Positions 545 to 59,938 of a stretch of 64,000 nucleotides of DNA are shown here, piece after piece. Under the pieces are notes generated by a model. That model saw only the letters and a list, made by a program, of their open reading frames with translations, was not told where the DNA came from and searched no databases. The stretch is taken from positions 62,001 to 126,000 of the forward strand of contig QPGO01000057.1 in assembly GCA_008632985.1 (NCBI GenBank), in the 5' to 3' direction. Each line of letters begins with the position of its first letter. The stretch's first letter is position 1. A program made the translations under genes and the position numbers. The stretch comes from Psammoneis japonica (lineage: Eukaryota).

Positions 545-980
545 AAAGAAAAACACAAGTTTGCCGCCGGGGCAGACGGGCCAGTTTTGGTCATTGGTCA
601 CATGCGCTCTGACATGGCGTGCTTTTGGTGGCATGGAGCCCAAAGAAGTGAGAGCTGCTCAAACTCATTTCAAAAAATGAGAGCAGAGTGCTTGCAGCTG
701 TTGTGTGTGCTGCCATCATGATGACACAACTCACCAGCAGATTTGCTTGACCCATTCAACCACTGACTGCACACTCAAAAATCAACAACAACAAAATCAA
801 CAACAACAAGTGGTGGTGACCATGTCATTGAGCACCTTGACAGAAAACCTCCCTGACCCCACCACAACCACCAAAGTGGAACATGTCAACTGGACAAATG
901 CTGCTGTTGCACCATTTTGGCTGAGCAGCCTCTGGGAGTGTTCTTGTGTGTAACATCATTGTTTTGTGATGTGGTCATGA
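545..980 (+). repeat. Diverged direct repeat, copy A
   Basis: Exact 35-mer gcagatttgcttgacccattcaaccactgactgca at 737-771 and 5328-5362, plus colinear flanking matches (cattttggctgagcag, gcttttggtggcatg). Confidence 0.85.
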
Positions 981-3900
981 CAAATTGTCAACCATGTTGT
1001 TTGGCACTCACTGGTGTGTTGATCTTCATTTTAGCAACAGCAGCCATGATGAATCTGAAGACAATGGGCTGTGGAGATCTGAAAAAATGGTGGCACTCAC
1101 TCAGCCTGTCCTTCCATCAGATGATGTGTCAAAAATCCCAAAACGCAATGGCGCTGTTGTGACACACACCATTCATCAGACAGACATGTCCCTTGTGATG
1201 GACAATGGCAGTGCAGGGCTTGTTGACTGTCACAGTGAGTGTGATGCCCACTTGTGTGGTTGTCAGAACTGAGCTGAGGGCAAAGGTTAGCACAGCTTTG
1301 ATCCTTTGCCCAGTTGCTTGAAGCAGAGGCAAAAACAGCTTGACCATGGAGCTGTTCTCTGCACTGCATGATGTTGAAAAGGATGGAAATGACACCACTG
1401 CATTGTTGTTGTCATGCAACAACTTGTGCAGGCTTTGCTCCACTTGTGATGCTTGTGCTGAGCGGCAGCTTGTGAGCCACACTGTGACATTTCAGGGAAC
1501 TTGCTGTTGGGCATGCTTGGAGCAGATTCATGTGATTCAAGTCTGAAACAAAAACAACAACAACAATGACAACAACCAAAACCACAGCAACAACAATGAC
1601 ACAACAAGCAGCTCTTTGCAAGTTGCCATGGCATGCTTTTCTCTGGTGTGCTCTTGTGCTGCAATGAAATTTGCTGCTTTTTTGTGTTCATGTTGGGGTC
1701 ATGTGTCTTTTGCTCAGCATGGCATTCACATGACACAAGTTGCTGGTGCCCTTGGATTGCTCCATCTTGCCACCCCATGTGGAGCAGCAGATTTGTTTGA
1801 ATCATGGAAGTTGTGATGCTTTTTCAACATCATCTTTTTGCAGGGGGCACAGTGCTCAACTGGCTGGACATTGGCAAGGATTTTGCCCATGTTTTGGAAA
1901 GAGATCATTTCACACCCTGTCAATGCTTCCATGTTCTGGTCCAGGCATGTGCATGATGAGCAGAGCAGCACCATTCTTGGAGGCCACAAGTCCATGAATG
2001 AGCAGAAATCAAAAGCAGGATCCATGTCCTTGGTTGGTTTCCAATCCTTGCTCACTCATGCAGCAAGAAGAACCACCAAAGGCAGGTCCTGTTGTGGTTG
2101 TTTTTGTTCCTGCTGTGGCAGCCTTGCCTGTGCTTGTGCTTGTGCTCCCCTTCCATGACAATTGCCAAATTTGACAAAGGCCTCCTGAAATTGCTTGGGT
2201 GATGCCTTGTCATTTTGTGCAATGCAGAGTGAGCAGCTTGGTCCAGGCATCAAGCAGGGTGTGTTTGACTGCTCTTCTCCTTGCTGAACACTTTTTTACT
2301 TCCTGTTGCAACCCAAAAGCAGTGCCCCACAAATTTTGGAGCGCAGTGCTTGAGCTGCTGTCACAATTTTCATTTTCACCTTTGCAAATCTGATTCTGCA
2401 TCTTTTGATGCTTGTTGCAGTGAGACACTTCTGTTGACATTGATTCTGGTTGAGCAAGCAAGGTCATTTGGTGCTCTTGTTGTGCCAATGCTTCTTTCTC
2501 TGTTGTTGGTTGCTTGTCATTGTTGCAAGAGGAACTTGCAGCGGCGGTGTTGTTGTGGATCTTGTCCAAATCTGTGCTTGCATGAGGTGTTTTTTTTTGT
2601 TGATCTTTGTTGGGTGAAATGGTTGAAGGATGCACCAGTTCTTTCCATTCTTGTCATGTTCAATGTTGTCCAATGCAGAATTGCACAATGCACTCAGTGA
2701 GTTTGCCATTGGCTGAACAGAGCATCTGCCCCACACAAGTGCCAGGCACCACAAATGCAATTCCATGCATTTTGAGTGAGGTGTGTTGCACATGTCAAGT
2801 GAGAAGATTTCCAAATGGGCACTAAACTCAACCACAAAACTGTGAGCCTCTGGCATTGAGATTGCACCTTGCTGTTGCTGTTGGAGCATGTTGCGAGCAT
2901 TTTTTGGTCATCTTCTTCCATGTTGCTGGTGTGAACAGCAGAAGCTGCTGTCACACACCATGCTGGCAAATTTTTGATGAAGTTTTCTGGCTTGCAGACC
3001 TGGTGGCTGGCAGAAATGCTGGTTTGCCAATGGCCCTGATGGAGAGTTTTTGAGAAAGATCATTGACGGCAGATCATCCAGCCCCCCCCCCCCCCCCCCC
3101 NCACACACACACCAACACTTCACTCCATGTCCAGAGGTGGTTCTGGAAAGGGTGCTTCTTTGCTGGTGGGATGCTTCATTGCCATGGTTTTTGCACACAG
3201 TGTGTGTGTTGCTCCCTTTGTGGTTCTGGGCTCAATTTGGAGGCACTTGATCTCACTGACATGCACACCCACAAGATTGGCTGCCACATTGCAAGTGCTG
3301 CATAAAAAAAAATGTTGTTGGCATGCCAACAATGTCCACAACCTTGGGCAAGACAAAAACAAGACAAAATTGAGTTGCCAAAGCAATGATGGAGTCTCAA
3401 TTTTCCAGGACTGGTGGGTGTGGTTGATTGTCCATTGTCATGATGTGAGAGTGGATTTTCAATGCTGTGTTGTTGTCCTGTTGCTGGAGGACAACAAAGA
3501 TCATCTGTTCCTTCACAAACAATCATGTGAGACACACTTGCACTCATGTGCTTTCTGACTGCATGCCGCAGCTTTGACATTTCCAAAGGAGGAAAAAACA
3601 TGTTGCAGAAATGTGAAACAAAATGAATTTTTTTAGAAGGAGCACACAACAATCTGTTGAGTGAAGGTTGTTGCAGCACAATTTTTGCATTTCTCCACTT
3701 CACAGAGAAGTCCATTGTGCAACAACAACATGGTCAGCATTTTTTTAAATCTTCAAGAGTCTTGCTCAATCATGTCGGCATGGAGATTGACCATGGTGGT
3801 GGCTTGTTGTTCCAGCACCACATTCTTGACTTTGGTCTTGCAGACAAGGATGGTCAGAGACAAGACTGTGTCCTGCTTGATTGGCTTGATGAGCCCTCAA

Positions 3901-5087
3901 CAACCGTGCATGACTGGTTTCTTGCAACAGGAAAAGCATCCTCCTCAATTTCCTCACAAACTTTCTCATTTTGTGATTCTTCATCTTTTTCATCAAAACC
4001 TCCCCCCCAACACTCACTTCTCCACACCAATCATTTGTCCCCAGTGGTCTCAACAGCATTGTTGGTGAGGAGCCAACTGACAATGACCTCTGTGGCCTCA
4101 ACCCAGATGCTGTCACATGACTTCAGCAACATGACCCTCAACCTCACATTTGTTGGCAGTGCACTCATCAACACACAGAAGGAAGTGTGCTCATCTGGTG
4201 CCAGCTGTGACATGGTGACCAGTGACTGGGTCAAGGACAAGGCATTCCTGCCTGGCTCAATGGTTGACTGGCTCCAAGGCATTGACATGTGCAATTGCTG
4301 GGAGCTGTCATGTGAAGGTGTGTGGGATGACCACGTTGCCGATCTGGCACCCTGGAAGTTGGAATCACTCATCTGCGCCACATGACACAGCTTGTGTTTG
4401 ACATTGCACCAAACACCACAAGTGTGTCTGGCTTTGGTGACATCACCAGTGAGTGTGTTGCAGCAGAGGACGATGCAAGGGAACAGCAGCTTTCGTGCAA
4501 AAGAAAAGAAAATTGTGCAGCATGTGAGCAACCGAGTGGCAGAGCAGCAGCTGTCAATTGTGGTGAGAGAACATTTTTGAGTGCAGGACATGTTGGGTGT
4601 GATGTGCAGTGCTGCATGGAGCAAGGAGGCAAGCCAGTGCAATGATCAGCAAGAACACATGACAGCACAACTTCACATTGAAGCCGGCAGCGCTTTTGAA
4701 AACACATTGATGCAGACATGCTGGCAGTTGAATGTGATCTCTTGTCTCACTCTGCATTTTTGCACCAGAGGTGACCAAGAGCAAAAATGGTGGCAAACAC
4801 ACTGTGTGGTGCAAAGAACAGATTGAGAAACATGCTGTCCAGTCAAAGCTTTGTGCCAGTTAAGAGCCATGCTCTTGCTTGTTTCAGCACTCACTTTCTG
4901 GTCTGACTTGGCACTTGCTTTCCTCTTTGCTTTGATGCTTCAAATGGCAAACAATTTCATGCATGGCCAAATTTAATCCCAAGACACATTTGTTTGGCCA
5001 CCCCAGCTCCAGTTGAACAACTTCCAAGCCTGGTGCACATGTCTGCGAGGGGCGGGGCACAACTGGTGCAGCGCACTGGTGCGAGAT

Positions 5088-5595
5088 GAAAAAAACCAAA
5101 GCTGGCTGGGACAGAGGGGCCAGTTTTTGTCATTGGTCATGCATGCTCTGGCATGACATGACAGTGCAGTTGGCCACACCCTGCAGGAAAAGCTTTTGGT
5201 GGCATGCAGCCCAAAGAACTGAGAGCTGCTGAAGATCTCACATTTCAAAGTGGGCCCGAGACAGCAGCCACAGAGAGAGCTTGCAGCAGTTGTTGCCGTG
5301 TCAACATCATGACAACATGACTCACTGGCAGATTTGCTTGACCCATTCAACCACTGACTGCATGCTCAAAAAGCAACAACAACAAGTGGTGACCATGTCA
5401 CCAAACACTTCACAGTGGTCAACTTCCTTGTTGTCCCACACCTTTGGACTTGCAGCGGCCGCTGCCAGCCAAAATTTTTAAATGGAACATCCATGTCGAC
5501 TGCACAAACACTCCTGTGCCAGACATTTTGGCTGAGCAGTCTCTGGGAGAGTCTTCTCGGATGGAGGAGCGATGTTTCGTGATGCGGTCATCATG
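5088..5595 (+). repeat. Diverged direct repeat, copy B
   Basis: Colinear with 545-980, with indels and CA<->TG swaps. Confidence 0.85.
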
Positions 5596-7091: not shown

Positions 7092-9686
7092 TTATAGTAT
7101 TTCTGATTTGTGTTTGTTTTCATTGTTAGCAAGAAGATCTCTCAACTCGAGCACCTCATTCTGCAGCGCGATGTTTTGTAGCTCCAACGTCTTCATCTTG
7201 CTATCCTTCGCCCCTTCCTTCCCCCCCAGGCTCGACCCAATCTTTTCAGTTTCCTTCTTTATGGTTGTATTTGCTTGATTTCTCGAGCGTTCATCCTTTG
7301 CTTCGGATTCTGCAGCGTCTACTCTTTTCATAAGAGAATCAATGATGCTTCTGAGCTTATTTTCAGTTTCTTTGCTCTCTTCCAATTCCCGTTCAATCTC
7401 CTTTTGCCTAAAAGGTTTTTGTTCATCTCGCGGGTGTGCTAGCTGCTCCTTTAGAGCTTCTACTTCAACTCTCAACCTTTTGGATTCTTCTCGGCTATTT
7501 GCCACCTCACGCTCAGCTAGCTTTCTGCCCTCCGCAATTTCACGGTCTGCAGTGTCAATTCGAACCATTAGTCCTTCTATTTTCACACGCGATGACGCCT
7601 CGTTCTCAGACAACAGCCGTTGCGCTTCCGCCAAATCTCTTGACAACTTGTCTTCTCGAATACTTTTCGCTACTCCTTTGGCATCGGAGTTCTTTTTCAA
7701 CTGGGACAGTTCCTTTTCTGTCTGGTGTAGCTTTGTTCGCAGCCTCAGAATTTCAGATAACCCCCCACTTGTTGCTGCCGGGGCCGCTTTTCCGTCTGAC
7801 GCGGGGCGTGCCGTTGGCGACACCGTGCCCAAACGCTCAAGTTCCAGCTCTTTTTCCACTCTCTGAAGCCTGGTCTTTAAGCGAAGTAGTTCCGGCATAC
7901 CGGCGATCTTGGAACGGTGCTCTGCCAGCTCTCTTTCCGTACGAATCAATTTGGCTCGCAAAGCAACGAGCTGTGACTCTTGTGACATTTCTTGTTGGGC
8001 ATCTTGAGATTTCCGTGCGGTATGTCTGGCTTCAGCCAACTGCGATCGAAGACTGGCAATGTCAGCCCTCAATTCAAGCACGGTCGGCGACTCTGGAGGA
8101 CGATCGAGGTTCGGGGAGCTCTTAACCTTCAGTTTAGCATTTGTAATTTCGAGCTGAGCCTGTAAATCGTCCTGTCGATTGCGATAGCGAGCCACGCGCT
8201 TTTCGGATTCGGTCTTGGTCCGACTAAGTTCGGCACGGAGATGGTTGACTTGGATTTCAAGATCCGTTATTTTTGACCGCAACTTTGAGTTCACGTCTTT
8301 TCTCTTCTTCAATTTCCCTTCCAAGTCTGGTGTGTTATTCATCGTGGGCGTTGAAGTTCTCTGTCTGCTTATTTCCTGCTGAGCCTCTTTCAGTTGAGCC
8401 CTAGTTTTATCCAACTCCGTCTGCATTGTATCTATTTGCCCATCTTGTTTGACAAGTTCCCCTAAAGCTCGAGACAAGCTTGCCTTTGGCACAGTCATTG
8501 ATTCGTCGTCTCTCTTAAACAATTGCAGTCGTATTTTTCGCATTGATTCTGGATCTTCCCCTCCATTGACAATCTCCGCTGTAGGAGAAACTGGAGTTCG
8601 ATCTGATATCTGGCCGTTCTTCCTCCGGAGTGAACGCTCACGTCTGCGTCGAGTTGGTGCGCTTCTTGATCTCTTTTTTCCGTCCAATTTGGGGCCTTCC
8701 ATTATGTTGATTGCCTCCGGGAGTCTCATGGCTCCCCTCGATGAACGAAATCCTTGTCCAGGGGTTTTCTGGCTCTTGGTGGATATCGATGATACTGATG
8801 TGGTGGTTCGCGTCCTGTCTGGTGAATTTTCGTTGTTTTCCCCAAAGCTGGTAAAGAAATCTTTGTCGTCCCCTCTTTGTTCTCCCACCACTCCCATCGC
8901 ACATTCTTCTCTGCATAGAAGAGTACCAGTGTCTGCAAAGTTTCGAAGACAGGCTTCGAATGTGGGGGGGAGTGGAACATTTTTTTCTTTTTTCTTTGCT
9001 GCATCTGTTTCCCGACCAGGTTTCAAGGCAACCTTTATGACTTTGGGAGTGGTCCGTTTTTTATCCATATTATGGGGCTCACCAGATTTTGTTTTGGAAG
9101 AGACAGCAACGGCCTTGGCCTGCACCTCTTTGACTCGTCTAATCATTTCCTGGACGTCTCTTCGTGTTGGTGTCGAGCAACTGATCTTCGTTGGCGTATC
9201 ATCTGGAGAGTCTCTGTCACCATTGTTGGCATCTCCGTTGCTGTTATTTGCCCGAGTATTCTTACCAGCGACCGCACTGCACGAAGCGAATGCCGACCGA
9301 TTTAGACCAATGTTTTGAGGAGAAGGATTACTTTCTGCTGCTGGCTGCGACTGCTGAAAATTCTCATCTTCCATAGAGCGAAATTTGACGGCTCTAGCAT
9401 CCGGAGAGCGTGTCGAGTTTCTCCGAGGCGCGGAATTTGTCACCGCTGTTGGAGATCGAGGGTTGCTCCTTTTTTGGGTGGTTGCAGTGATGTCGTGCAC
9501 ATCAACGTTCCTCATTTTCATGCTCGTTGTTCCACAGTGTGAAAGTACGATAGGCGCTATTCTACTAACGCACTTGGAATACTGGCGTCGGCAAAATACC
9601 GTTTCCCCATCTAGTACTCGACACAACAGCCAGCCTTTCCAATGATCTCTCGATGCCGGTGGTGCTTGGCCCTGTACTGTAGCCAC
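7092..9686 (-). CDS. Large coiled-coil protein with disordered N-terminus (true start probably downstream, ~9350-9520)
   Basis: 864-codon ORF with heptad-rich E/K/R/L C-terminal half and normal dinucleotide usage. Confidence 0.75.
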   Translation of the reverse strand: MATVQGQAPPASRDHWKGWLLCRVLDGETVFCRRQYSKCVSRIAPIVLSHCGTTSMKMRNVDVHDITATTQKRSNPRSPTAVTNSAPRRNSTRSPDARAVKFRSMEDENFQQSQPAAESNPSPQNIGLNRSAFASCSAVAGKNTRANNSNGDANNGDRDSPDDTPTKISCSTPTRRDVQEMIRRVKEVQAKAVAVSSKTKSGEPHNMDKKRTTPKVIKVALKPGRETDAAKKKEKNVPLPPTFEACLRNFADTGTLLCREECAMGVVGEQRGDDKDFFTSFGENNENSPDRTRTTTSVSSISTKSQKTPGQGFRSSRGAMRLPEAINIMEGPKLDGKKRSRSAPTRRRRERSLRRKNGQISDRTPVSPTAEIVNGGEDPESMRKIRLQLFKRDDESMTVPKASLSRALGELVKQDGQIDTMQTELDKTRAQLKEAQQEISRQRTSTPTMNNTPDLEGKLKKRKDVNSKLRSKITDLEIQVNHLRAELSRTKTESEKRVARYRNRQDDLQAQLEITNAKLKVKSSPNLDRPPESPTVLELRADIASLRSQLAEARHTARKSQDAQQEMSQESQLVALRAKLIRTERELAEHRSKIAGMPELLRLKTRLQRVEKELELERLGTVSPTARPASDGKAAPAATSGGLSEILRLRTKLHQTEKELSQLKKNSDAKGVAKSIREDKLSRDLAEAQRLLSENEASSRVKIEGLMVRIDTADREIAEGRKLAEREVANSREESKRLRVEVEALKEQLAHPRDEQKPFRQKEIERELEESKETENKLRSIIDSLMKRVDAAESEAKDERSRNQANTTIKKETEKIGSSLGGKEGAKDSKMKTLELQNIALQNEVLELRDLLANNENKHKSEIL

Positions 9687-12868: not shown

Positions 12869-13129
12869 GGTCGATCTTGAGTTTGTGCGGTCCACCGGAT
12901 CTTATTTCGGGATTTTCGGTGTTTGCTTGTCAGACAAAGTTGGTGATTGCATTGTGGTGTCCGCCCTACTGTACACTCAAGTTGAATGTGTGACGTGGCG
13001 AAACTGAAACGCTCACTTTTTCATCTCTCCGCTTTCCGCGGCGTCATCAGCTTTCGCACTTCTCGATCGCAACCAGTGACCACATTATTTGCGGAAGAAT
13101 ACTGCATCTGCAAAAGGACTACTACTATC

Positions 13130-13846
13130 ATGGCGCCTCTTCCCATCAGAAATCTGAGCTTATTTTTCTTGGTCCTTTGTGGGCTTGGTGTCGTGGAATG
13201 TTTCCTTCCGAGTCAAAATTCCTTTGTTTCACGAAGAACAGCGATGAATGTGGTTGCAAGTGGATCCAACAGCAATGACGACGATTCTCGCTTTTTCACT
13301 GGTGGTGCCTTTGATAAGATGGAACCAGAAGCCATCAAGATTGCCTCTCGCATCAATTCTGTAAAGGATCTTGGATGGACTGGTCCCGCCATGCGCCGGG
13401 GCACAACATATCCGCGCCATCGCGCTTTTGGTGGTCAGTCAGAAAAGCCGGTTCAGGACAAGCCCAACTATGATACGTCGAATCCAAGATGTGTGGAGAA
13501 ATGGTTGTCGCAAGAAGAGTTTTACGCCAAAGTCCGGGACTCTAGTCCTGCGGCGGATACGGTCTTTGTTGCTCTTGCTGGAGGTGAGGCCTTTGCCGAA
13601 CGGGAGGTTGTCGAAGAAAAACTATCTGCATGGCGGAGTGGCGGCAAGTTTGACGAAGATGCTTTTCTAAAAACAGTGAAGGATGGACGTTTTGGTCTGG
13701 CTGCTGGATGGCTCTTGTTTTCAACCGTGGTAGGATCGGCTGCACTTTGCATTGTCGCACCCACAAATCCATTGGCAAAAGCACTGGAGAGCGCGCTTGC
13801 TCCGTTGTCCGTTGATCCAGACTTTCTTGCTTCGGTAAAGAAGTGA
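13130..13846 (+). CDS. Uncharacterised plastid-targeted membrane protein, paralog A
   Basis: Signal peptide ending VEC-F, transit-like region, C-terminal TM helix; strong similarity to 25173-25919. Confidence 0.8.
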   Translation: MAPLPIRNLSLFFLVLCGLGVVECFLPSQNSFVSRRTAMNVVASGSNSNDDDSRFFTGGAFDKMEPEAIKIASRINSVKDLGWTGPAMRRGTTYPRHRAFGGQSEKPVQDKPNYDTSNPRCVEKWLSQEEFYAKVRDSSPAADTVFVALAGGEAFAEREVVEEKLSAWRSGGKFDEDAFLKTVKDGRFGLAAGWLLFSTVVGSAALCIVAPTNPLAKALESALAPLSVDPDFLASVKK

Positions 13847-14167
13847 GATAGTTATACTGTAACAGAAATGCGTCAAGTATGAACAACTGCCAAGATATGG
13901 GACGAAAATCGTTTTACTATGTCTGAAGAATAGAGGAACACTACGTCTCTCTTTAGAGATGTATTTTTGTCTCGTCACTCAAAATCAGTTGACCACGTAT
14001 CCATCCGTCTAGTCGACTTTTCATTCTGTTCTACGAAAAGACATTGGGAAAATGCGACGTGGAGACTTGGTATATGCTTACCCAAATTTATGCAATTAGA
14101 TATCTAAATGTTGTAGCGGTGGCCCGCCGTCCTCCCGACACAGCTACAGCTTTGTGAGCGGCACTAG

Positions 14168-14758
14168 TCACTCATTCTTTGGCAGTCCATCATCGTTTAA
14201 CTCCGTGCCTTTGCTATTCCTCTTTCCATATACCAAATCCCCAAGAAAGGTCTTGTCTTTCCTAGCGTGTTTTACACCTTCGCCACCCTTCAAGCGCTGA
14301 AAGGTGGACATGTCCGCCCTTTCCTCGGCGGTTGGAACATGGTCATTCGTTTTGCCGGTTGTAACTTTGGCTACGGTACGAGTTGGACGCTCGCCAAGCC
14401 TCAGTCGATCCATGGCGTTTAGATCTTCCCCGTTTACTTGTTTCTTGTATGCCTTCTCCTCAGCTTTCTCTTTTCGATTCTTGATTTTGTCGACTGCAAT
14501 GTGGCGACCGGTTTCGCCATTTTTGAGGCGTTCAGTGGTTGCCATGTTTTCTCGTTCCTCTTTAGTAAGGATCGGATCATCATCTTTGCCTGTAACTGGC
14601 TTCAGTGCTGCCACAACGGGCCTTTCACCGGCAACGATCCTGTCTGCTGTGTTGAGTTTTTCACCTTTTTCCTGCTTCTCGACCGCTTCCATTTCTCCGC
14701 GTTGTTTTACACGGTGGACTGCGCGTGCTGGAGCTAGGAAGACTTGTGCGACTACCAT
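14168..14758 (-). CDS. Small hydrophilic protein with two ~50-aa internal repeats
   Basis: GEKLNTADRIVAGERP...EERENMATTERLKNGE versus GEDLNAMDRLRLGERP...EERADMSTFQRLKGGE. Confidence 0.7.
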   Translation of the reverse strand: MVVAQVFLAPARAVHRVKQRGEMEAVEKQEKGEKLNTADRIVAGERPVVAALKPVTGKDDDPILTKEERENMATTERLKNGETGRHIAVDKIKNRKEKAEEKAYKKQVNGEDLNAMDRLRLGERPTRTVAKVTTGKTNDHVPTAEERADMSTFQRLKGGEGVKHARKDKTFLGDLVYGKRNSKGTELNDDGLPKNE

Positions 14759-15249
14759 TTTTATTTCGTTTGTTCCTTGTTGTTTGTTGCTTCGAGTGAA
14801 AGATTTGTGAGGAAACCTTGTCAAAAAAATGAGGGCGTATCTGCGAGTTCGTGACCGACGCGTGACTATTTCTGTGCAGTCATCGATCGTGTATTGCACA
14901 CTCAGTAGGATTCTACAGGAGGTGGCCGTTCTACTCGTGACCCCAACTTCAAGTTCGGTCCGGGTAGCGCCGGTTGCGCGCATGCACATGGAAGTAGGTA
15001 CAAGCACATTGCGTGTTGACGAAATCTAGAGAGCTCGTACTGTAGCTCTCTACTCTAGAGTGGTCAAATGAAGTGTACGTAGGCTCTCTCTACTAAAGGC
15101 AGGGTTAGCTAGAGTGGGTCCTACAGTGGCTTACTTCCCCGTCAAACTGTAGGTAATCTGTGCACTAACCTGACGGGTTGAGAATGAGATTTCAGCAACG
15201 CAGCCAATAGAATCACTTCTCCCTAGTTTCCATTCTAAAAAAGGCCGGC

Positions 15250-15965
15250 ACTTCTTCATCTACATTTGGTTCGTCCAACTTGTTCGTAGCTGCCTTGATG
15301 AGGTTGTTGACCTTAGGATCCAAGTCCTTAGCCGTGGCGAAGCACAGCATGGCCTGTTCAGGTCGTCCAGTGCGTTTCAGCTCTCGTCCCTGGGTAAATG
15401 AATGGACGACTCAAGAGATCAATTCTTCCAAGCAAAGGCCACTGCCAGAGCAGCGAGAGCATGCAGCTTTGAGGATTGATGCCAATGGCCCGGCGACAAT
15501 GGCATTCAGCCAAGTCGCACTTTTCCTGGGTGACAATAGATGGAACCAAGCCACACCAGGCGTTGAAATGATGCTCACCAACACACATATGGTAGCGTTG
15601 CGGTACAACACGCCACGGCCTATTCAAAAACTTCGCTGGCCATGTACTCATGTCCCGAGAGCACATGTGCGTAGGATCGAGTTGCATGGCTAGACAAAAA
15701 AGTCAGGGCTGTCTCTCGTTTTGGGGAGCAAAGCCATTGTCCACCACGTACCACGCTGGGGGGATGCGATCAAAGTCCGTGGCGCTCTGGGCCAAATGCG
15801 ATAGATCCACTTCCTTCTTCAAATGCCAAAGGACGTTCTTGTAGTCGGCGACTTCAAAGCATGTCCGACAAATCTGATGCAAGACCCATCCTCTTTCAAA
15901 GCGCTTGGGTGAGAGCACACTGAAAGTCTGCAATGCCACGCAGCAGCGGCACTGTACCAAGAGAA
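15250..15965 (-). pseudogene. CDC27: CDC27/APC3 (anaphase-promoting complex TPR subunit) pseudogene fragment
   Basis: GWVLHQICRTCFEVADY, LWHLKKEVDLSHLAQ, QLDPT, HFNAWCGL, QEKCDLAECHCRRAIGINPQS match the CDC27 C-terminal TPRs; spread over several frames with deletions. Confidence 0.8.
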
Positions 15966-16291
15966 GGAATAGCTCGCAGCAGCCTTTCCATAGGAAAAGC
16001 TACTTGCAGCAGAAGAAAGCTACTTTGTCTCGTCACTTTTTCAATTAAAGTCAATCGAGCATATGTCCTTCGCCAGTTGAATGCGCATCCTTTGCTACCA
16101 CTGGACATTTGAAAAATGGAACGCGAAGAGTAGCGTCGTGTCGACTGGTCCTTTCGGTGTCTGTTCGGGTGATGAGTGATGCACTGCGAAGTACGACCTT
16201 TGCGTAACACAGCAATAGAGCAAGCGAACCGGCGTTAACAGCCATCTCGATTTTCGTATGCGGAGCGTCGCCTTCCTTTTCTCTCTTTGTG

Positions 16292-16987
16292 TCATTTATC
16301 TTGACTGAGTCGACGAAGCTGCTTCTCAAGTAGAGGCCTTGCTTTGCGCTGACCGCCTCGTTCATTGATCGCCCGTTCCAGCGAACGCAGACCGTTTTGT
16401 ACAGCCAGCACGTTTGGATCCAAGCCTCTTTGAAAACATTCATCGAGCCAATCGAGAGGCTTTGTATGGCCCCTCAGCTTGTTACAGCGCCTGCAACAGG
16501 CAAGTTCATTCTCCACCCAACTCGGCCCTCCTTTGATCCGTGGTATCAAGTGATCAGTAGTGGCAGTCTCGAGAGAAAGTGGCGTTCTGCACCATACGCA
16601 GTCAAAGCCGTCTCGCTGTAAGATGGCGTTCATTCTCTCTCGTCGATTCGGCTGTTTACGTTGCGGCGAGGACAGAGTGGTATCAAAAATAGCATCGCTT
16701 GACTCGTCATTCTGATGCTGTCGTCTTCGTTTTCTCGTCGCATGTAGCTGAGTTCGACGGCGTGGCCTTCCCCCCAAAACAACCTTTGGTAAAACTGGGC
16801 GGGTCCTTGCATGCTGCACAGTTTGGTGGCTTAGTCTGCGAACACATTTAATGCTACTTCTACCTACGGAGATCGAGATCGGTGTCTGCGAGCAAAAAGC
16901 AGCGCATCTCAAAGCCAGAACTGAGGTAATCATTGACAGCAGATTGAGTTGCCGTAGAAGCATTGGAAAACTCATTCCATGCATCAC
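16292..16987 (-). CDS. HNH endonuclease (McrA-like/HNH_5) with N-terminal organelle-targeting extension
   Basis: RDGFDCVWC...TTDHLIPRIKGG...NELACCRRCNKLRG. Confidence 0.85.
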   Translation of the reverse strand: MMHGMSFPMLLRQLNLLSMITSVLALRCAAFCSQTPISISVGRSSIKCVRRLSHQTVQHARTRPVLPKVVLGGRPRRRTQLHATRKRRRQHQNDESSDAIFDTTLSSPQRKQPNRRERMNAILQRDGFDCVWCRTPLSLETATTDHLIPRIKGGPSWVENELACCRRCNKLRGHTKPLDWLDECFQRGLDPNVLAVQNGLRSLERAINERGGQRKARPLLEKQLRRLSQDK

Positions 16988-17496
16988 ATGGGTCTAAAGA
17001 CGTTTTGACTGCTGGCACAACTGTATGCTCAATGCGGTGCTCTCTATTGTGCCCATAAAATTTCGCCATGGCGTCATGGCGGCTGCGGGCAGTGGACAGA
17101 CAACTTCGATTAGACCGACTTTGAACTTACTCTAACTATACACTCAGTTCAAAAGTTAACGGTGTCAGAACTGAAGTGTGAACATGATTGTTCGGTACAT
17201 GGAGGCAAAGAATTCATTATTGTGGTTAGGCATTACCCAATTTTGCCAGTTGGAACCTGCTGGTGGAGTTGGAGCCAACCCCCAAAAGCAAGCCACGTGG
17301 GTGGGGTTTGGCCCGCAAAGCAGGAAAGAAGGCAAACTTTGATTTGGTTCTCAGTATTTAAAGAGATTATTTGCCTTCCGTCGCTCAATTCCGTAGAGCA
17401 AGATGGACCTGACAGAAGAGCATGTTTGCGATCGAGATCGAAAGCCCGAGTTCGAAAAGACGTGTTCGTCAAGCGCAGGATTCTCAGCGCCAAAAG

Positions 17497-18216
17497 TTAT
17501 TCTTTTAGATAGTCTTCGATATGAGATATTGATGATGCAGGGGGTATGAATTGAAACGCCGGCGTTTCCGCACTTTGACTCGTTGCAAGCAGTTCTACCG
17601 CCTTTCCAAGAGATAAGCTGGACACTTCGAAATCATCCACGCTCCCTCCATCCATTTCGACAGCCTGTTTTAATGCAGCATTCGCTTCTTCCAGTTTGAA
17701 GAACATTGGGAGACAAGGTTTGCCGGCTTCGTTTTCATGCATGATATCCATGCACGCAAACAGCGGCACCTGCTGACCCGCAGGATTCGCATCAGGAGGT
17801 GCACCCGCGGCCATTATTGCTTGACGGCTTGGAATTATCACCGCTTTATCGTCCGCCCACATTTGGAAACACCCTCCTAGTCCCATTGGGATGATATCAA
17901 GTCCGTCCATTTTCGTTGCCTTCTGGGCTTTGCTTAGCTCGGCCTTTGCGTCTTCGACATCAACGAAAAAGAAAGGTAGCTTCCAAGTTTTCCCTTGAGC
18001 TTCTACTTCGTATGCCAATGGTTGCCCTTTTTCGTTGGCGCATGTAAAGATTGGTACAGCGTCAAGCTCCTTCTTGATGGCGGCCCAGCCGTCGCTAGCA
18101 AAGAGTTCATTTGCGTTAGCAGGAGTTGCAGCCAGTGAACTTACGGAGCGAGGGCGGTTCACGATGAATCCTTCCACGTTGAAGATGCTCAATAGAATCA
18201 ATGTAGCTTTTATCAT
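17497..18216 (-). CDS. TIC22: Tic22-like plastid import chaperone
   Basis: Signal peptide ending VEG-F; LDAVPIFTCANEKGQPL, PFFFVDVEDA, VPLF, PMFFKLEEA, FQFIP. Confidence 0.75.
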   Translation of the reverse strand: MIKATLILLSIFNVEGFIVNRPRSVSSLAATPANANELFASDGWAAIKKELDAVPIFTCANEKGQPLAYEVEAQGKTWKLPFFFVDVEDAKAELSKAQKATKMDGLDIIPMGLGGCFQMWADDKAVIIPSRQAIMAAGAPPDANPAGQQVPLFACMDIMHENEAGKPCLPMFFKLEEANAALKQAVEMDGGSVDDFEVSSLSLGKAVELLATSQSAETPAFQFIPPASSISHIEDYLKE

Positions 18217-18499
18217 TGTGCTAGTCTTGACAGGTATCGATGATGGTTGGAAGCTGCTTTGTAATGTGGGTTGTAAGCTGTTGAGCAGTGTTGATGTTGG
18301 CGTGTTGTAATAAGATGATCCTAGGCCCTATCTTCTCTATCGTGAATTTTGTGAGGTGATAAGGAGCGCGGGGAAAAAAAGCGGACATCGCACAGGCGAC
18401 GCACATAATCGGTTGTAGTTAGTTAGACTACGGTATGTGCGTGCTGTCTGTCGCGTTCAACGTTTTCGTGCGTTCAACACCGCCATGATGACGATGCCA

Positions 18500-21400
18500 T
18501 TTCTAAACAGCATCATTCGGCAACAAAATGAATCAGGATTGACTGACATTGTGATGAAATGCCAATGTGAGAAAAGGAAAACAGAGGGAAAGAGTTGCAC
18601 TGCATCTTTCTGGAGCAGCTGACATTGTCGCGTTCTCTCCTCTTAGAAAAAGCGCGCTTCTTTGGGGGCCGTTCAACCCTCTGCACAAAAATCGCATGCC
18701 TCCAAGATTTTGAGGCAAACACACGCATTGCCATGTCTTGAGATGAAAGTGTGGATGCCACAAATTTTGCAGCTTTGAGCATGGCTGTGGCTTCTTCTGT
18801 CTCACTTTGTTGGCTCTCCTCAAGTGGGTGGGAGAGAAGCTGTGTGTTGTTTTGCATTTCTCCTCTCATCTGGAGCAAGTGGCACACACACCTGTTTGCA
18901 TTTTTTGGCAAAAGGGATGATGAACAGAACAATTTGCTGCCCGGGGCTTTTGATTGTGTCAACAACAACGCAAAAAAAAAGGCACTCAAGCAAGATGCAA
19001 ACTGTTGCACACACAGACAATGAGCATGTGGTTCACCTGAGACTGGTTTGGATTTGGACAAGCCAGTCATGCTGACACATGCTTTGTCATTCTTCAGGGT
19101 GCATTGACACTCCAGCAATGGAGCCCATGGGAGCTTGGGTGTGCTGTGAAAGCCCAGCGCACATGCACAATGTCAGATCTCACAAGCTCTTCTGGCAAGG
19201 CTGTCAATGACTCAAATTCAAAGTCTGCAAAGGATCAGTCAGTTGCTCCAACACTGAAAAAAGTGCTGGGAAAGCAACCCAGGGCAGTTTGTGCTCCTCA
19301 TTTCAATCTACAGGAGGTGTGTGCCAAAATCTCAACAAGACAAGAGAAGCCCCCTGTTGCACTGTTTCTTTTTTAAAATGCCCAAGAGAGTTGACTCATC
19401 AGAGTGTCCATCTGCCAGCAGCTGCAGAACTGCCACAGCAGAAACCACATTGAAACAATTGTGCAAAGAGCCAGAGGTGCACAGCAAACTGCTGGCAAAT
19501 GATGTGTGGCTGCAACTCAACTGCTGGAGGCACTGGTGGCTTGTTGCTTTCTCCTTCTTGAAACTTGGATGGTCAAAGAACAGTGCTTCACTGTGATGCA
19601 GAGTTGTGCTTGTCACAGCCTTTGCAGCCAGAGCCAAAATGACAAAAAGTGCTTTTGTGGCTTTTCTGCAGCATCTGGCAACTGTTTTGCCCATGCATTT
19701 TGGTGCCAGGTGTTGTCGCTGTCCTTGCACAAAACCCAGAGAGATGTGACAGTTGCGCACAAAGTGCTGCAAGAGACAACTCACTTGCACAGGTGCCACT
19801 TGCTTGTGCCAAGAGACTTCAAATGCTGCAACAAGCACTGCTGCATGCTTTGGAGAGAATTCTGCAGTGTCAGCATCAAGCTTCCTTTTTTCTTGGGCTG
19901 AAAGCTGAGAATGTGCAGCAAGCCTTGATGCGGAAAACTCAGAACAAAACATCATTGACCCCAGATGTCCAGCAAAACAACCACAAGGCTCCAACAAATT
20001 TGCTTGCTCATTGACACACACCAAGAGCTCCAGTCAATGCTTGCACCATTGTTTCTCACAAGCAGTGGTGGTGGTGGCAGGAGCTTGACTTTTGCCAGTG
20101 AGAAGTTTTGCTTTGTCAGAGAGCAGAGCTGCTCACAAAACAAAGAGTCACAGCTCCAGCTGTCCAGCCACGCTGCAGATTCTTGGCAGCTCTTCCAGTC
20201 ATGGCAGCACACAGACATTGCTGAGACAAAAAGACAACAAAATCTTTGCACCCTCAGATGTTCATTCCAGAGATGCACATCTTGGCAAGTTGGCTGGCAA
20301 TGGGTTCTGAGCCTGTCATCAAAGGATTTTTCATCTTGCAACTCTGCAAAAGTGGAGCACCATTTTGTTCTCAGTTGGGTTCTTGAGAGTGGTTGATTTG
20401 CCAGCAGTCTGCCTTGAAATGTGAGGTGGCAATGGCAGCATCTCACAAGTGGTGCTCTTGCAAACAAATGTCAATTTGGCCAGTGTGCAACAAACTGCAG
20501 CACCCAAGAGGACAGCTTTTGAAGCCATGGCTGTTGTTCCACAAACTGTTGTTGAGAAGACAAAGCAACACTTTTCCCTTGGAGACAGCAGCAACAATGA
20601 GGAGCTCAAAGTTGCTTGCATGACAGATCCTCTCAAAGTGATCAAGGACAACTCTGCAATTGCTGGGTTGATTTTCTCAATTTCTGGATTCTGTTGAGCA
20701 CTGGATGATCATCTGTTTTAGCTGTTTTGTAGACTGCCCAGCTCTGGACAGCAATGCCTGGGTTTCTGCACAATCCTTTGGCTCTTGCCAGCCAGCCTTT
20801 GACCTTGAGCACTGCCTCCAAAACAGCTGGCAGCACTTGTCCAAAATTGTGCAATGCAGCCATGCTGGCTTGCACTGCCACTCCTTCTGCAAACTTCCCA
20901 GTTTTGGCTTTGCTTGGTTGTCTTGTGGGTTTGAGTGGATTGTTGCTTCTTTGGGCATGTTGTCAGTGCTGGCTGCAGCTTTCCATTTGTGTTGCATCCA
21001 AGGGAGCAGACTTGTCTTTGTTTGAGTTTGCCATCAAAGGCAGACTCCATGGGCTGATCTTCAACTGGCAGTCAAACCCCAGAGGCAAGAGTGCACCCAG
21101 GCAATGAAAAAGCTCTCTCAGTTTTCTTTGCCAAAGCACGGAGGCTTCCATGTGACCACAAATCTCTGAAACCCACGACGCAATGCTGTGCAATGAGAAA
21201 AAGGAAACAGGTCATCAAACTGACTCAACAAAATGACAGATGGAAAACAATTTGCTGTTGCTCGCTGCTTCACCTTTGAGACAGTCTCCAACTTTGCACT
21301 GAAAGCAAGTGCTCCCTCCAGAGACAACAGAGATGAGTGCCACCCCAGTGAGCACAAATCAACAGGGTGTGGTGCAGTGAGGGTGTGCAAAGGAACAAGG

Positions 21401-21600
21401 GGAAATCTTTTGTCAGTGCACAACAACCTGCAATGTCTGAGAGGACAACTTGAAGCCACTGTCGTCATTCCAGCCACTGGCAAGTGGTGCTTGAGAAATC
21501 TGAGCAACAATGCCACCCTTGGAAGACAGTGAAAATAACAAGAGGAGTCCGAACTTGCATGGTGGACCATATCTGGGTGAGCAGAGTCTAGGGTCTTGGA
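18500..21600. other. TpA/CpG-depleted hypermutated block 2
   Basis: Near absence of TA and CG, strong CA/TG excess, nearly Tyr-free overlapping ORFs; no recognisable product. Confidence 0.85.
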
Positions 21601-21941
21601 GTGGTTTGAGTTTCAAGGGAGTGAGTTTTGGGGGGTGGGTGGAGGTTTATGACATGGGCAGAGTTTCTGCTGGGTGAGAGTAGCTTTGTTCTTATCATTT
21701 TTTTTTCACAGTGCAACGGAACGGATGATCACCTCATTTTTAAGTTGCAACAGGCCTTCCCGTTGCTATGATTAAACTATCATATGGCCGATGAGAAGCT
21801 CACATATGATCTGGCCGCCATTCTTCTTTCCAGAGATCAAAGAGAAGGGGCGTCGGCAACTAAACCGCCGTTCTCAGTCACTCGGATATATTCGCACACC
21901 TGTTTGGAAACATTTTGACAGCGACTTCACGCCTCCCTGTA

Positions 21942-23633
21942 TCACAGAGTGCATGAGAAGGGGTGACCGTTATTCTCCCAGTCCAATTCAATCGATCCGA
22001 TAGACCCAGCTAGTCCACCGATTAGTACAACGACACCGAAGACTCCGAGTCCGTACGAAGCCAAGGAAGAGCGAGTCGGGCGCCACATTGGTATGTTAAA
22101 AGCTCGACGGTACAAAATAGCAGGCAACAATAACGTCAGCGGTACTGATGTCAATGCACCAATGAGTGCTACCAAGTCTTTGAAAAAGGGCACCATGTTT
22201 GCAACTAGGTAGGATGATATTGTCAAACATAGTGTCAAGGTCAACCAACGTTTTCGAGGGTGCTGAGACGGAGCAAAATGTTGGAAAAAGCGGCGATCAA
22301 TGGATGCACAAATAGCTTGCGAGTTGATGGCATAGGAAACTGCGACGTGTATCCAGAGCAACAGTCCTGCGAACTTTCGAGCCGCTCCTGAAGGAATAGA
22401 GTCAAAGAGAAATGGCGGCGGGTTTGGCCCAGCCAGGACACTAATCGCCACATATACCGCTCCAAACACCACGGACGAAATGGCAAGACTCTTGGGTGAA
22501 TCATCTCGATGTTTCATTTCTCGTCGAATGTTGAGAAGCAACTTGTTGGAACCGGTTGCAAACGCAATACTAGCCATGGCCGAGAGTCGACGCAGAAAGG
22601 ACGTGTCACTTGGAGGCTGGTAAACTTCCTGTCGTTCTCCCGCCACTAGACACTGTATCACAACAACTGCTAGACAACCAAGAGATAGTATGGTAACCTT
22701 CTTCCCCAAGTGTGCCATTGTACGCAACTGGCCAAAGGCGAGCATCAGAGTTGATGCCACCAGACCTGCGTGTGGTATGCAAATGTCGACAATTGCCGCC
22801 ACAGCGTGCGACATTACCAAGATATAATCCCCGAGAACGAGGAAAATGTTGGTATAAAAGATAGTGACGACAACTCGAGTTGCAATGGGATGGTGAAACA
22901 GGGCCTGTGTCATTCCGATGAAATCATGTGTGTCGATTTCTTCTGAGTTGGAATTGGATATGCCACATGCTCCATCGTTGGGAAGCTGCGCAACGTTGTC
23001 AACCGCCTCTTTCTCGTGATTGTCATCCGTCGTACAAACGCTAGAATATTTGTTAGTGCTCTTTTCGGCCTCAACGCGGACATGTTCCTCACTGTCGTCG
23101 AGAGTTTCGGGGTCTTCCTCAGCTGTAACTTCTGACGCGTGGACACTAGAATACGCACTCTTTTTCGAACTAGCACCAATTCGCATAATTCCGTCGCTGC
23201 TTTTCATTTTCTGTTTTGATTTTTGGTCTGAAAGAGTATTTGGGGACTCCACATTGGAAGTCATACGAAACACACCATCGCCTTCGCTTTTTGGCTCCTC
23301 AGATTGCCGCTCCACTCGTGAAGCAGCATTCGACAAAATCATTCCAGCAAACCAATTGAGCGGCAGATTCATAATCAAGAAGGAGAGCCCCACAGCCTTT
23401 CCCAACACTTTGATGTCCTGAGGCAGAGCTAGAAGCCCAGTGCCGAGAATGTCTGCGGTTAGAAGCGACGCTGCCTGCAGAACCGTCAAATCATCGTTGA
23501 ATTCCTGATGGATGGAGTGATGAGCGTCTTCACTGTCACCTTCACTATCCGGATCATCATAAGAGAGTCCATGGTCTGACTCTCCATTTTGACTTTTCAT
23601 TTCAATCTCTGAAGAAGGCACTGCTGTCATCAT
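21942..23633 (-). CDS. Amino acid transporter (AAAP/Aa_trans family)
   Basis: LLTADILGTGLLALP, many TM segments, VPFFKDLVALIGALTSVPLTLLLP. Confidence 0.85.
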   Translation of the reverse strand: MMTAVPSSEIEMKSQNGESDHGLSYDDPDSEGDSEDAHHSIHQEFNDDLTVLQAASLLTADILGTGLLALPQDIKVLGKAVGLSFLIMNLPLNWFAGMILSNAASRVERQSEEPKSEGDGVFRMTSNVESPNTLSDQKSKQKMKSSDGIMRIGASSKKSAYSSVHASEVTAEEDPETLDDSEEHVRVEAEKSTNKYSSVCTTDDNHEKEAVDNVAQLPNDGACGISNSNSEEIDTHDFIGMTQALFHHPIATRVVVTIFYTNIFLVLGDYILVMSHAVAAIVDICIPHAGLVASTLMLAFGQLRTMAHLGKKVTILSLGCLAVVVIQCLVAGERQEVYQPPSDTSFLRRLSAMASIAFATGSNKLLLNIRREMKHRDDSPKSLAISSVVFGAVYVAISVLAGPNPPPFLFDSIPSGAARKFAGLLLWIHVAVSYAINSQAICASIDRRFFQHFAPSQHPRKRWLTLTLCLTISSYLVANMVPFFKDLVALIGALTSVPLTLLLPAILYRRAFNIPMWRPTRSSLASYGLGVFGVVVLIGGLAGSIGSIELDWENNGHPFSCTL

Positions 23634-23849: not shown

Positions 23850-25000
23850 TAAACTGATCGCTTGGCAGCAGTCATGGAGCTGCAGGTGTTGGAACAATTG
23901 CATTTCTGGTTCAGCAGCTTAAGGTTGATTGTTGTGGAGTTGGTTGTCCCCCCACAGAGCAGAGAAATGCTGGTGTGAACAGGCTCAACACACGCAGCAA
24001 AACTCCTCGCTTGTCTTTTCCACTACAAGCCCCGCGCAGTTGGAGCAAGTGATGCAATGATCTTGGAACAAGAAAGGATCAGCTTGTGGTTTAACAGAGT
24101 GGCTTTTTTGTCCACAACTGGTGCCCCATTTGCTCTTGACAGCTCAAGAAGAGCTCCCCAGAGTGGGCGACAACTTTCTGGTGCCAGCACAAGCACGACC
24201 GCCTCTGTGTGATGTGGCAACTCAGCAGTTGCTCATGGCACAAGCTGCATGTGACACCATTGCAGCAGTTGCTCATGCCTGCTGCTGACATGAGGAAAGC
24301 ACTGGTTCTTGTCAATCAGCGCTCTCGAGCTCTCCAGCAGAGAGAGTCATGGTGACAGCATCGTTCCTGCACACATGCGGGGGTGTTGTCAGGTTGTGAG
24401 CAAAACTTCCCTTCAGGAAGCAGTGCTCCTCTGACTGAAAAAAACTCTCAGTGCGAACACTCTTTGCTTCCACATCTGCAACCTCCTCATTGGCATCTTT
24501 CTTGATGCAAAAAACAAGCTGGGGGGGTTGTTGGTTGCATCGTCAACAACGACGGCGCGTGTGCAAAATGGCTGCTGCTGCATTTTTTGGTTGCTGTCCG
24601 TGGCTGCTCGCACAGCACTTGTCACCACACACTCCTGCATGCCTCAAAGAGCTGCAGCTGGTGGCATTGTCAGCTCTGATGCCTGTTGCCTCAGGCACTG
24701 TCACCACATGACATGCTGTGTTTTGTGGGCTGGGTGCTGCTGCCACCGTGGCAGTGGTGCCTGCTGCGCTTGCTCAAAGAGGACACAGGCTGATGTTGAG
24801 GACTGGCGCAGCACTCAAACAAGATCCAGACAAGGCTGCGCAACACAACAGGAGACTCCAACCCCACCCCACCCCCCAGGACACGTGTCAGCCCCCCACC
24901 CCACCCTCTGCAGAGACAACTCAAGCTGCACCGCCTCCGTCTCTCCCTGGCCTGGCTGCGCTGCAGTTCTTGTGGATACACAGCACAGACGCCCAGCAGC
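23850..25000. other. TpA/CpG-depleted hypermutated block 3 (between divergent genes)
   Basis: TpA nearly absent; CpG reduced but partly retained. Confidence 0.8.
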
Positions 25001-25172
25001 GTCTTGATGCACGACGCGTTTGGCATCGGCTCGCTTATTGTGAATTTCGTGAAGATCGGAGATCGGATCTTTGATCTTTGCCATTGTTGCTCTGTTGCAG
25101 CGATTGAATCAACCTGAACGAGAGTTTGAAATATCCTGTAACAGCGCCTTCGACTCCAAAGGAAGCGTCTTC

Positions 25173-25919
25173 ATGTCTCAGATTATAGTTTGCGCCGTTT
25201 TCCTCTTTTGCTTGGCGGTCGACACGCATGGATTTGTAATCCGGTCGCCACTCACAACAAGAACGAGAAGTCGGTCGATTCTGCCTACTCGAATCGGAAT
25301 TAGCAAGGATGAAAAGGATGTAGAATTTGTCGCGGCGCTAAAAGAGGCGGGAAAAAATGATATTCCTTATGTATTTACGGGAGGAATAACAGACAAGATG
25401 GAATCCGAAGCTGCCAAAATCGCTTCTCGCCTCAGGTCCGTCAAAGATTTGGGATGGACGGATCCTCCAAAACGGCGAGGATCCGCCCGTCCGCGTCATC
25501 GTGCCTATGGCGGGCAGACAGAAAAGCCCATTCAGCTCAAACCCAATTATGACGAAAGCAGTCCGTTATGTGTTGAGAAATGGTTGACTCAAGAAGAATT
25601 CTACAACAAAGTTGGCGATTCATCTCCTGCCGCCGACACTGTTTTTGTTGCTCTTGCTGGAGGCGGAGCGTTTGCCGAACGCGAGGTTGTGGAAACTATG
25701 TTGAATCAGTGGCGAAGTAGCGGAACGTTCGACGAAGCACAGTTTCTGAAATCTGTCCAGAAGGGAAGGACTCAATTGGTTCTCGGATGGGCAGTATTTC
25801 TCTCACTCAACGCAATTTTTGTCGTTTGTCTCGTTGCTCCCAACAACCCACTTGCGCAGTGGTTGTACAGCGTCATCGGACAAATAAAGGACAACTTGCG
25901 ACCCGCCGGTTTGCCATAG
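25173..25919 (+). CDS. Uncharacterised plastid-targeted membrane protein, paralog B
   Basis: Signal peptide ending THG-F; shares SVKDLGWT, PRHRA, KPNYD, CVEKWL.QEEFY, DSSPAADTVFVALAGG.AFAEREVVE with 13130-13846. Confidence 0.8.
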   Translation: MSQIIVCAVFLFCLAVDTHGFVIRSPLTTRTRSRSILPTRIGISKDEKDVEFVAALKEAGKNDIPYVFTGGITDKMESEAAKIASRLRSVKDLGWTDPPKRRGSARPRHRAYGGQTEKPIQLKPNYDESSPLCVEKWLTQEEFYNKVGDSSPAADTVFVALAGGGAFAEREVVETMLNQWRSSGTFDEAQFLKSVQKGRTQLVLGWAVFLSLNAIFVVCLVAPNNPLAQWLYSVIGQIKDNLRPAGLP

Positions 25920-59900: not shown

Positions 59901-59938
59901 CACAACACAAACGTGGGCTTCTTCTGGTCATGACTCAG

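Follow-up and report, generated by a model that had tools for sequence, protein, structure and literature searches.

A dead APC3/CDC27 gene fragment in Psammoneis japonica and the possible imprint of a mutation process that removes TpA and CpG

Repeat-induced point mutation (RIP) in Neurospora and other fungi makes only C>T and G>A changes, mainly at CpA, and thereby yields TpA-rich, AT-rich DNA; it is known to lightly mutate short duplications and to leak into their flanks. Deaminases are a second source of dense transitions, since they hypermutate retroelements before integration, with A>G changes made by ADAR and G>A changes by APOBEC enzymes. Background on RIP is given in sections of PMC9998398 and PMC2621366, the first of which describes diatom DNMT4 enzymes as related to the fungal RIP factor RID and of unknown function. 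Here, we analyzed a stretch of 64,000 nucleotides (nt) of Psammoneis japonica contig QPGO01000057.1 (positions 62,001 to 126,000; hereafter the window, whose own coordinates are used throughout), in which several blocks are nearly devoid of the dinucleotides TpA and CpG (TA and CG below), and in which a degraded fragment of the APC3/CDC27 gene lies among ordinary genes. A full-text literature search, DNMT4 included, returned no account, for diatoms or any other organisms, of TpA and CpG both being removed by one process. Judging from its letters, we give an even chance to the reading that the APC3/CDC27 fragment bears a light mark of the process that turned TA and CG into TG and CA in the blocks, laid over ordinary decay.

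The locus itself is almost certainly a dead, 5'-truncated copy of the C-terminal third of APC3/CDC27, and as such an ordinary dead gene fragment. Three minus-strand open reading frame (ORF) pieces were collinear with human CDC27 473-790 in PDB sequence searches: the first matched residues 473-517 and 539-582 (E = 1.7e-9), the second 629-671 (E = 3.9e-7), and the third 741-790 (E = 1e-3). Two word-index protein searches with pieces of the window returned no match. When the first piece was compared exhaustively with 1.84 billion protein representatives, 291 proteins reached E ≤ 1e-3, the best of them 51-55% identical over the matched stretches. Residues 430-761 of the best match, P0001, used as a query, retrieved diatom APC3 proteins that were 63-98% identical to P0001 in this region, with named sources in Odontella, Conticribra, Thalassiosira, Stephanodiscus, Cyclotella, Skeletonema, and Seminavis. 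None of these relatives could be called the parent, as they were at most 49% identical to the fragment (tblastn, gaps and out-of-frame parts included), with 45.7% for the best-scoring one. A metagenome scan with the C-terminal piece found three loci, with no usable APC3 gene among them, and Pfam gave weak TPR matches and nothing stronger on the fragment pieces. Our own frameshift-aware dynamic programme aligned a profile of 120 diatom APC3 proteins with the minus strand of 15150-16400; ancestral states were taken solely from the family consensus of these proteins. The alignment gave the following features:

15240-15990, minus strand: APC3/CDC27 pseudogene fragment, from the C-terminal TPR block to the natural C-terminus (about residues 436-761 of P0001)
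15834-15835, minus strand: junction at which 24 codons are deleted, in the window's copy alone
15620-15622, minus strand: in-frame TAG where the family has Lys
15419-15421, minus strand: in-frame TGA in a poorly aligned stretch

The alignment stopped exactly at the C-terminal Phe of the APC3 family (15240), and 115 of the 153 well-conserved diatom APC3 columns were still identical in the fragment. The best path required nine frame changes, at least three of which are evident from the ORF list alone, and a further stretch of about 49 codons was absent between P0001 positions 637 and 703, bringing the deleted codons to about 73 in total. With these frame changes, stops, and missing codons, there is no ORF able to give a protein. 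A functional gene with introns or recoding was also considered, and was excluded by the stops, the loss of conserved TPR parts, and the existence of a second copy with other deletions. The earlier note on this DNA, made from the letters alone, had called a CDC27 pseudogene at 15250-15965; the pseudogene stands, and homology fills that interval, although it runs slightly wider. With 258 diatom and other APC3 proteins as tblastn queries, no CDC27 homology was detected elsewhere in the window, including that of the N-terminal TPR domain; a single weak extension reached 16326, and similarity above 15990 was unconvincing.

In these respects the locus resembles known duplicated gene-fragment pseudogenes: it reproduces part of a single-copy housekeeping gene, carries frameshifts, stops, and deletions, lacks the N-terminal half, and has unrelated genes on both sides. 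It differs from them in that the fragment occurs in at least two copies with common internal deletions, and in that its substitutions are skewed towards TA>TG and CG>TG/CA. On its own the fragment is ordinary and has no function for the cell; its worth is that of a witness. Ancestral letters can be known in few places, and pseudogenes of conserved genes are among them. A duplicate of a PDZ gene in the same window is the stronger witness.

The process in question is seen in five blocks:

601-5400: block 1, TA and CG nearly absent
18801-21400: block 2, TA and CG nearly absent
about 24000-25000: block 3, TA and CG nearly absent
35400-39400: block 4, TA and CG nearly absent
52200-60200: block 5, TA and CG nearly absent

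Observed/expected ratios (O/E) in the blocks were 0.02-0.06 for TA, 0.07-0.36 for CG, and near 1.7-2.0 for TG and CA, compared with 0.55 for TA and 0.99 for CG outside them. The blocks are sharply bounded, and their G+C content is unchanged, near 0.48. Relative to its normal density, TA survived in the blocks at 0.5% in RTAY (R, purine; Y, pyrimidine), at 4% in mixed contexts, and at 28% in YTAR, and 32 of the 51 surviving TA were part of TTAA, TTAG, or CTAA. CG loss depended little on context, with GCGC surviving best. TG and CA were locally balanced, that is, the changes are strand-symmetric. Since TAA and TAG are excluded from the blocks, TGA is the sole stop there and long spurious ORFs are abundant. 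Pfam detected no transposon domain in 109 block ORFs of at least 90 aa (three weak, unrelated matches) and none in ten of the longest block ORFs, and blastn revealed no likeness of the blocks to each other. Block 1 is framed by a direct repeat pair resembling long terminal repeats (LTR-like; about 621-795 and 5192-5385), in whose copies one and the same dinucleotide can read TG on one side and CA on the other; thus, conversion came after the repeat had been duplicated. The blocks are candidate transposons only, this single repeat pair being the sole basis of the label transposable element (TE). At 54000-55400 and 24000-25000, TA was gone (O/E = 0.06-0.09) while CG was partly lost (0.36-0.70), so the two losses are separable in degree, TA going first.

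A separate observation concerns block 18801-21400, where the window can be compared with a contig of X1, a source-sample run that contains 90% of the sampled words of 14000-22000. Five differences were found in this block, two of which are TG/CA swaps (19425-19426 and 20669-20670); position 19079 reads CA versus CG between the window and the X1 contig, and one-base indels separating these sequences likewise cluster in the block. These differences may fit two haplotypes converted independently at the last sites, or consensus differences.

The direction of the process could be read from a partial duplicate of a PDZ gene, found by a repeat search on purine/pyrimidine-recoded sequence followed by base comparison column by column:

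59960-60530, minus strand: copy A, which duplicates part of the adjacent PDZ gene and lies on the right-hand edge of block 52200-60200
60560-61275, minus strand: copy B, the unmutated counterpart, comprising the 3' part of the PDZ ORF and its 3' flank, of normal composition

The PDZ-domain ORF (60893-61456, minus strand; Pfam PDZ, E = 5.7e-7) is intact, and copies A and B are identical at 41 of the 49 residues where both are open. In copy A, 19 of the 26 parental TA and 21 of the 30 parental CG are now TG or CA (40 of 56 together), with a TG : CA outcome of 19 : 21 over both of its zones. Inside the block, 12 of the 18 TA became TG (5) or CA (7), the others being one CG, one kept TA (in TTAG), and four transversions, while all seven CG became TG (3) or CA (4). 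Over the 330 nt past the block edge, 7/8 TA and 14/23 CG were converted and seven CG were kept. Conversion is therefore near-complete to about 60200 and partial beyond, which describes a graded edge. This duplicate shows that the process mutates ordinary sequence, that it strikes a host-gene copy, and that TA is converted before CG, and it is the cleanest evidence both of direction and of a host-gene copy being struck. The suggestion in the earlier note that copies of host genes are affected, and not TEs only, is thus well supported, by the PDZ duplicate rather than by the CDC27 fragment for which it was made.

We further compared the process with the known systems. Like RIP, it makes context-specific transitions that inactivate sequence, its tracts have sharp bounds and graded edges, and host-gene copies are within its reach; furthermore, the CDC27 fragment is itself repeated in the genome, as detailed below. 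In contrast to RIP, it destroys TpA as well as CpG, half of its changes are A>G/T>C, and G+C stays as it was; moreover, only one of the two copies is mutated at the PDZ duplicate, where the gene-side flank is duplicated yet unmutated, so that a RIP-like attack on both copies is excluded there. CpG decay through deamination of 5-methylcytosine would match the CG>TG/CA changes of the blocks and, within the fragment, those of Arg CGN to TGY/CAY. However, it leaves the loss of TpA unexplained, a loss that is more complete in the blocks than that of CpG, and outside the blocks CpG is as frequent as expected. Hypermutation by ADAR or APOBEC enzymes shares clustered transitions and a preferred neighbouring base with the blocks, whereas the block changes are strand-symmetric; being also unequal between the LTR-like repeats and between the PDZ gene and its duplicate, they must have arisen in the chromosome.

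For the CDC27 fragment, the evidence consists mainly of codon changes at Tyr and Arg columns of the family:

15949-15951, minus strand: Tyr>Cys (TGC), QYR>QCR; family Y 0.64, F 0.33; absent from the earlier note
15859-15861, minus strand: Tyr>Cys (TGC), RAYFE>RTCFE; family Y 0.69
15553-15555, minus strand: Tyr>Cys (TGT), NAWYGL>NAWCGL; family Y 0.90
15517-15519, minus strand: Tyr>Cys (TGC), QEKYD>QEKCD; family Y 0.54, Y in all six nearest proteins
15502-15504, minus strand: Tyr>Cys (TGC), AEYH>AECH; family Y 0.88
15533-15535, minus strand: possible sixth Tyr>Cys, ambiguous; family column H/F/Y
15940-15942, minus strand: Arg>Cys in the alignment
15694-15696, minus strand: Arg>Cys in the alignment
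15585-15587, minus strand: Arg>Cys (TGT) in the alignment
15571-15573, minus strand: Arg>His (CAT) in the alignment
15530-15532, minus strand: Arg>His (CAC) in the alignment

The consensus of the 120 diatom APC3 proteins reads GRAYFE, NAWYGLGAIY, and QEKYDLAEYHF, where the fragment has RTCFE, NAWCGL, and QEKCDLAECH with the Cys codons TGC and TGT. The earlier note had given these same readings and had set them against GRAYFE, NAWYGL, and QEKYDLAEYH as the expected consensus; the profile alignment confirmed the former, with a fifth site added, and the diatom family agrees with the latter. That Tyr is ancestral at these sites is supported through the family consensus only, and the six nearest proteins all have Tyr at three of the five columns. 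Ten Tyr columns had an ancestral call: five are now Cys, four are kept (483, 570, 579, and 613), one is Phe, and none is His; an extra TAC at the F/Y column 592 was not counted among them. A>G at codon position 2 was found at 5/10 Tyr codons versus 5/60 codons for Asn, Lys, Asp, Glu, Gln, and His (Fisher's exact test, P = 0.004), and at 3/8 versus 3/50 in strict columns (80% conservation or unanimous nearest relatives; P = 0.03). The 15 Arg columns comprise three Cys, two His, two Leu, one Ser, and seven kept Arg, all of the latter CGN, so that one transition at CpG accounts for each Arg>Cys and Arg>His. Changes in the forward sense, from TA or CG in the first two codon positions to TG or CA, numbered 10/25 versus 3/30 in the reverse direction (P = 0.012), and with stricter cut-offs 8/22 versus 3/26 (P = 0.08) and 6/16 versus 2/22 (P = 0.05). 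TA was converted more than CG (50% versus 33%), an order also seen where the PDZ duplicate leaves its block. A purine precedes each of the five mutated Tyr codons (RTAY), while three of the five remaining TAY (the four kept and that at 592) follow C and two a purine. Between P0001 positions 596 and 626, six of eight Tyr/Arg codons were converted.

The composition of the fragment is shifted in the same sense. As the earlier note had described, some TA and CG are kept (17 TA and 36 CG in 15240-15960) and the genes around are normal, the flanking ORFs being of normal composition. O/E in the fragment was 0.41 for TA, 0.74 for CG, 1.32 for TG, and 1.47 for CA, at a G+C content of 0.50. For 15240-15960, the ratio (TA+CG)/(TG+CA) came to 0.42. 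Among 372 overlapping intervals of equal size outside the blocks (mean 0.64, sd 0.10), the lowest value was 0.42, which the fragment equals or undercuts, and the shift stops at both ends of the fragment. It is strongest in one patch:

15390-15600, no strand assigned: block-like patch, with 3-6 TA+CG versus 16-21 TG+CA per 90 nt

Within it, a composition as extreme as that of 15500-15590 was reached in 8/3926 normal intervals.

At least one further copy of the fragment exists in the source-sample reads. It was recovered from contigs of the source-sample runs aligned to the window at 80% likeness, so that the figures given here hold among the pieces and differences listed; over the parts that can be aligned, likeness between the copies is about 84%. 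An X1 contig of 1070 nt (depth 47 versus about 60) matched 15182-15436, with 41 other letters and three gaps, and also 15529-15691. Contigs from both X1 and X2 matched 15182-15436 and then diverged from the window. The 92 nt between the two matched parts are equal in length in both copies and too diverged to align, and they fall (15437-15528) within the patch at 15390-15600; that the most-diverged stretch coincides with this patch would fit copy-specific hypermutation after duplication. Beyond the stop codon, the copies have one more segment in common:

15182-15239, minus strand: 3' flank common to both copies, 58 nt after the stop codon, with homology ending at 15182

The second copy has the same internal deletions in its C-terminal part and is unrelated to the window beyond 15182. 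Another X1 contig (depth 59.7) continues behind 15835 with 30 letters, hand-read as RMKGLEVLST. This is a family segment that the window lacks, which confines the 24-codon deletion to the window's copy. Opposite 15692-15771 of the window, the same contig is reduced to 20 letters. Extra X1 depth was limited to about 15107-16009. Together with the shared internal deletions, these depth limits imply that the already-damaged fragment was itself copied and that only CDC27-derived sequence is held in common.

The strongest competitor to a light mark of the block process is ordinary pseudogene decay alone, in which CpG acts as a hot spot, the Tyr>Cys run is chance or a mild bias noticed by looking, and the block process is absent from this locus. 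We regard this as quite possible, if somewhat short of an even chance, and a series of observations favours it or weighs against the mark. The near-absence of TA and CG that characterizes the blocks was not found in the fragment, where both are mildly low overall, and ordinary coding stretches are equally low in the above ratio at the 500-nt scale (0.40 at 8651-9250 and 0.41 at 41951-42550). The nearest block lies 2.8 kb away, and at the PDZ duplicate conversion tails off over about 350 nt. The 18 TA that survive in 15240-15990 are in 5 RTAY, 10 mixed, and 3 YTAR contexts, as in normal DNA. At codon positions 1-2 outside Tyr, 18 transitions and 19 transversions were counted over 266 sites; with the two so nearly equal, most change in the fragment is generic and not of the block type. 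New TA was made by Cys>Tyr, Lys>TAG, Arg>CTA, and Cys>GTA, and new CG by His>Arg, Gln>Arg, and Met>Thr (ACG). Moreover, Tyr>Cys and Tyr>His stand at 5 : 0 (P about 0.06, hand calculation) and the TG : CA outcomes of the forward changes at 8 : 2, whereas the block process gives TG and CA equally. Of the seven differences listed between the two genomic copies (15248-15324), three are at TA, CG, TG, or CA sites, in both directions. The ancestral letters are the family consensus only, and two of the five Tyr>Cys columns are Y/F or Y/H in the family. All tests on the fragment were run after the pattern had been noticed, counts are small, and the strict-column Tyr test gives only P = 0.03. In the cited part of a mutation-accumulation study on another diatom, CpG is the most mutable dinucleotide (PMC6604790).

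Decay alone accounts less readily for the excess of A>G at Tyr over other xAx codons, for the RTAY context of all five Tyr>Cys changes, and for the clustering of Tyr>Cys and Arg>Cys/His in one patch. The same part of the mutation-accumulation study names CG, CC, and TG as mutagenic contexts, and TA is not named there (PMC6604790). The earlier note had taken the fragment for an incompletely mutated target, a view that draws support from the excess of forward over reverse changes, the RTAY context, and the patch, and that sits poorly with the transversions, the newly made TA and CG, and the lack of Tyr>His.

If the fragment does bear a light mark of the block process, its history might be reconstructed as follows. 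The fragment, derived from the 3' third of the host's APC3/CDC27 gene and truncated at its 5' end, is one of at least two diverged, damaged copies, and most of its differences from the family are neutral decay, comprising frameshifts, deletions, and transitions and transversions of every kind. To this, a light dose of a TpA/CpG-specific transition process would have been added, converting TA in about half of the Tyr codons and CG in a third of the Arg codons, with the changes concentrated around 15390-15600 and in the RTAY context that is most completely mutated in the blocks. Exposure would then have ceased, and later ordinary mutations would have re-made some TA and CG. The pseudogene, its departures from the family at Tyr and Arg columns, the second copy, and the existence and direction of the block process at the PDZ duplicate are established. 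We infer both that the Tyr/Arg excess is due to the process seen in the blocks and what caused the exposure; for the latter, the repeated nature of the fragment is one guess. Should the changes indeed come from the block process, they would indicate that it runs from TA/CG to TG/CA, that it can act in small doses, and that host-gene copies are exposed to it.

A broader proposal, which we offer tentatively and consider doubtful, is a chromosomal hypermutation system that would deaminate the adenine of TpA, preferably within RTAY, as well as the cytosine of CpG, until marked DNA is free of TA and CG, with the fragment as a two-copy, 0.8-kb substrate of a single light episode. If true, the fragment and the PDZ duplicate would supply the ancestral states that prove direction and context, and duplicated pieces of host genes, besides mobile elements, would be marked for destruction.

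Far less probable is a retrocopy of A-to-G (A-to-I) edited RNA, in which Tyr>Cys would have been made on the sense strand before insertion. Such an origin would suit the five TA changes, all of them sense-strand A>G with none on the other strand, as well as the 5' truncation, the end of inter-copy homology 58 nt past the stop codon with CDC27-derived sequence only, and the confinement of extra X1 depth to the fragment's surroundings. However, there was no A-rich tract after 15182 and no direct repeat flanking the fragment as marks of a processed pseudogene, Arg>Cys is C>T on the same strand, and A>G was not raised at other sense-strand A (the 5/60 given above); an ADAR-type enzyme is not known from diatoms. 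A sequencing or assembly artefact, such as miscalled modified bases with TG/CA not the true sequence, is the least probable of all, for although the two TG/CA swaps between the window and the X1 contig inside block 18801-21400 and the unrecorded platform of the runs speak for it, contigs of two source-sample runs reproduce the fragment (these runs not being independent of the assembly), record 10 spans 15005-17102 with six other letters and records 1 and 2 cover the fragment too, the frameshifts and deletions stand regardless, and by reasoning a strand-specific miscall at a palindromic dinucleotide should leave TA/CG about half the time, so that a consensus should keep many of them, whereas the blocks have almost none.

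The neighbouring ORFs encode a Tic22-like protein, a monomeric isocitrate dehydrogenase, a protein kinase, an amino-acid transporter, and an HNH endonuclease-like protein, and would fit a diatom-like nuclear genome with few introns. The last of these, a 233-aa ORF with an HNH_5 domain (16292-16993, minus strand; E = 2.8e-9), is the next ORF upstream of the CDC27 fragment, in the same orientation, and may belong either to the host or to a mobile element. Farther away, two paralogous plus-strand ORFs (12986-13846 and 25053-25919) have cores (13313-13687 and 25392-25766) that are 70% alike, with no homology found upstream of the core; the second begins directly after a TA/CG-poor stretch. On the other side of the fragment, a 285-aa ORF (14168-15025, minus strand) has an internal repeat and no Pfam match. 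It is covered very deeply in run X2 and is present in runs X3 and X4, which come from other organisms and cover 14123-14781 only, and an 85% similar paralogue lies elsewhere in the genome.

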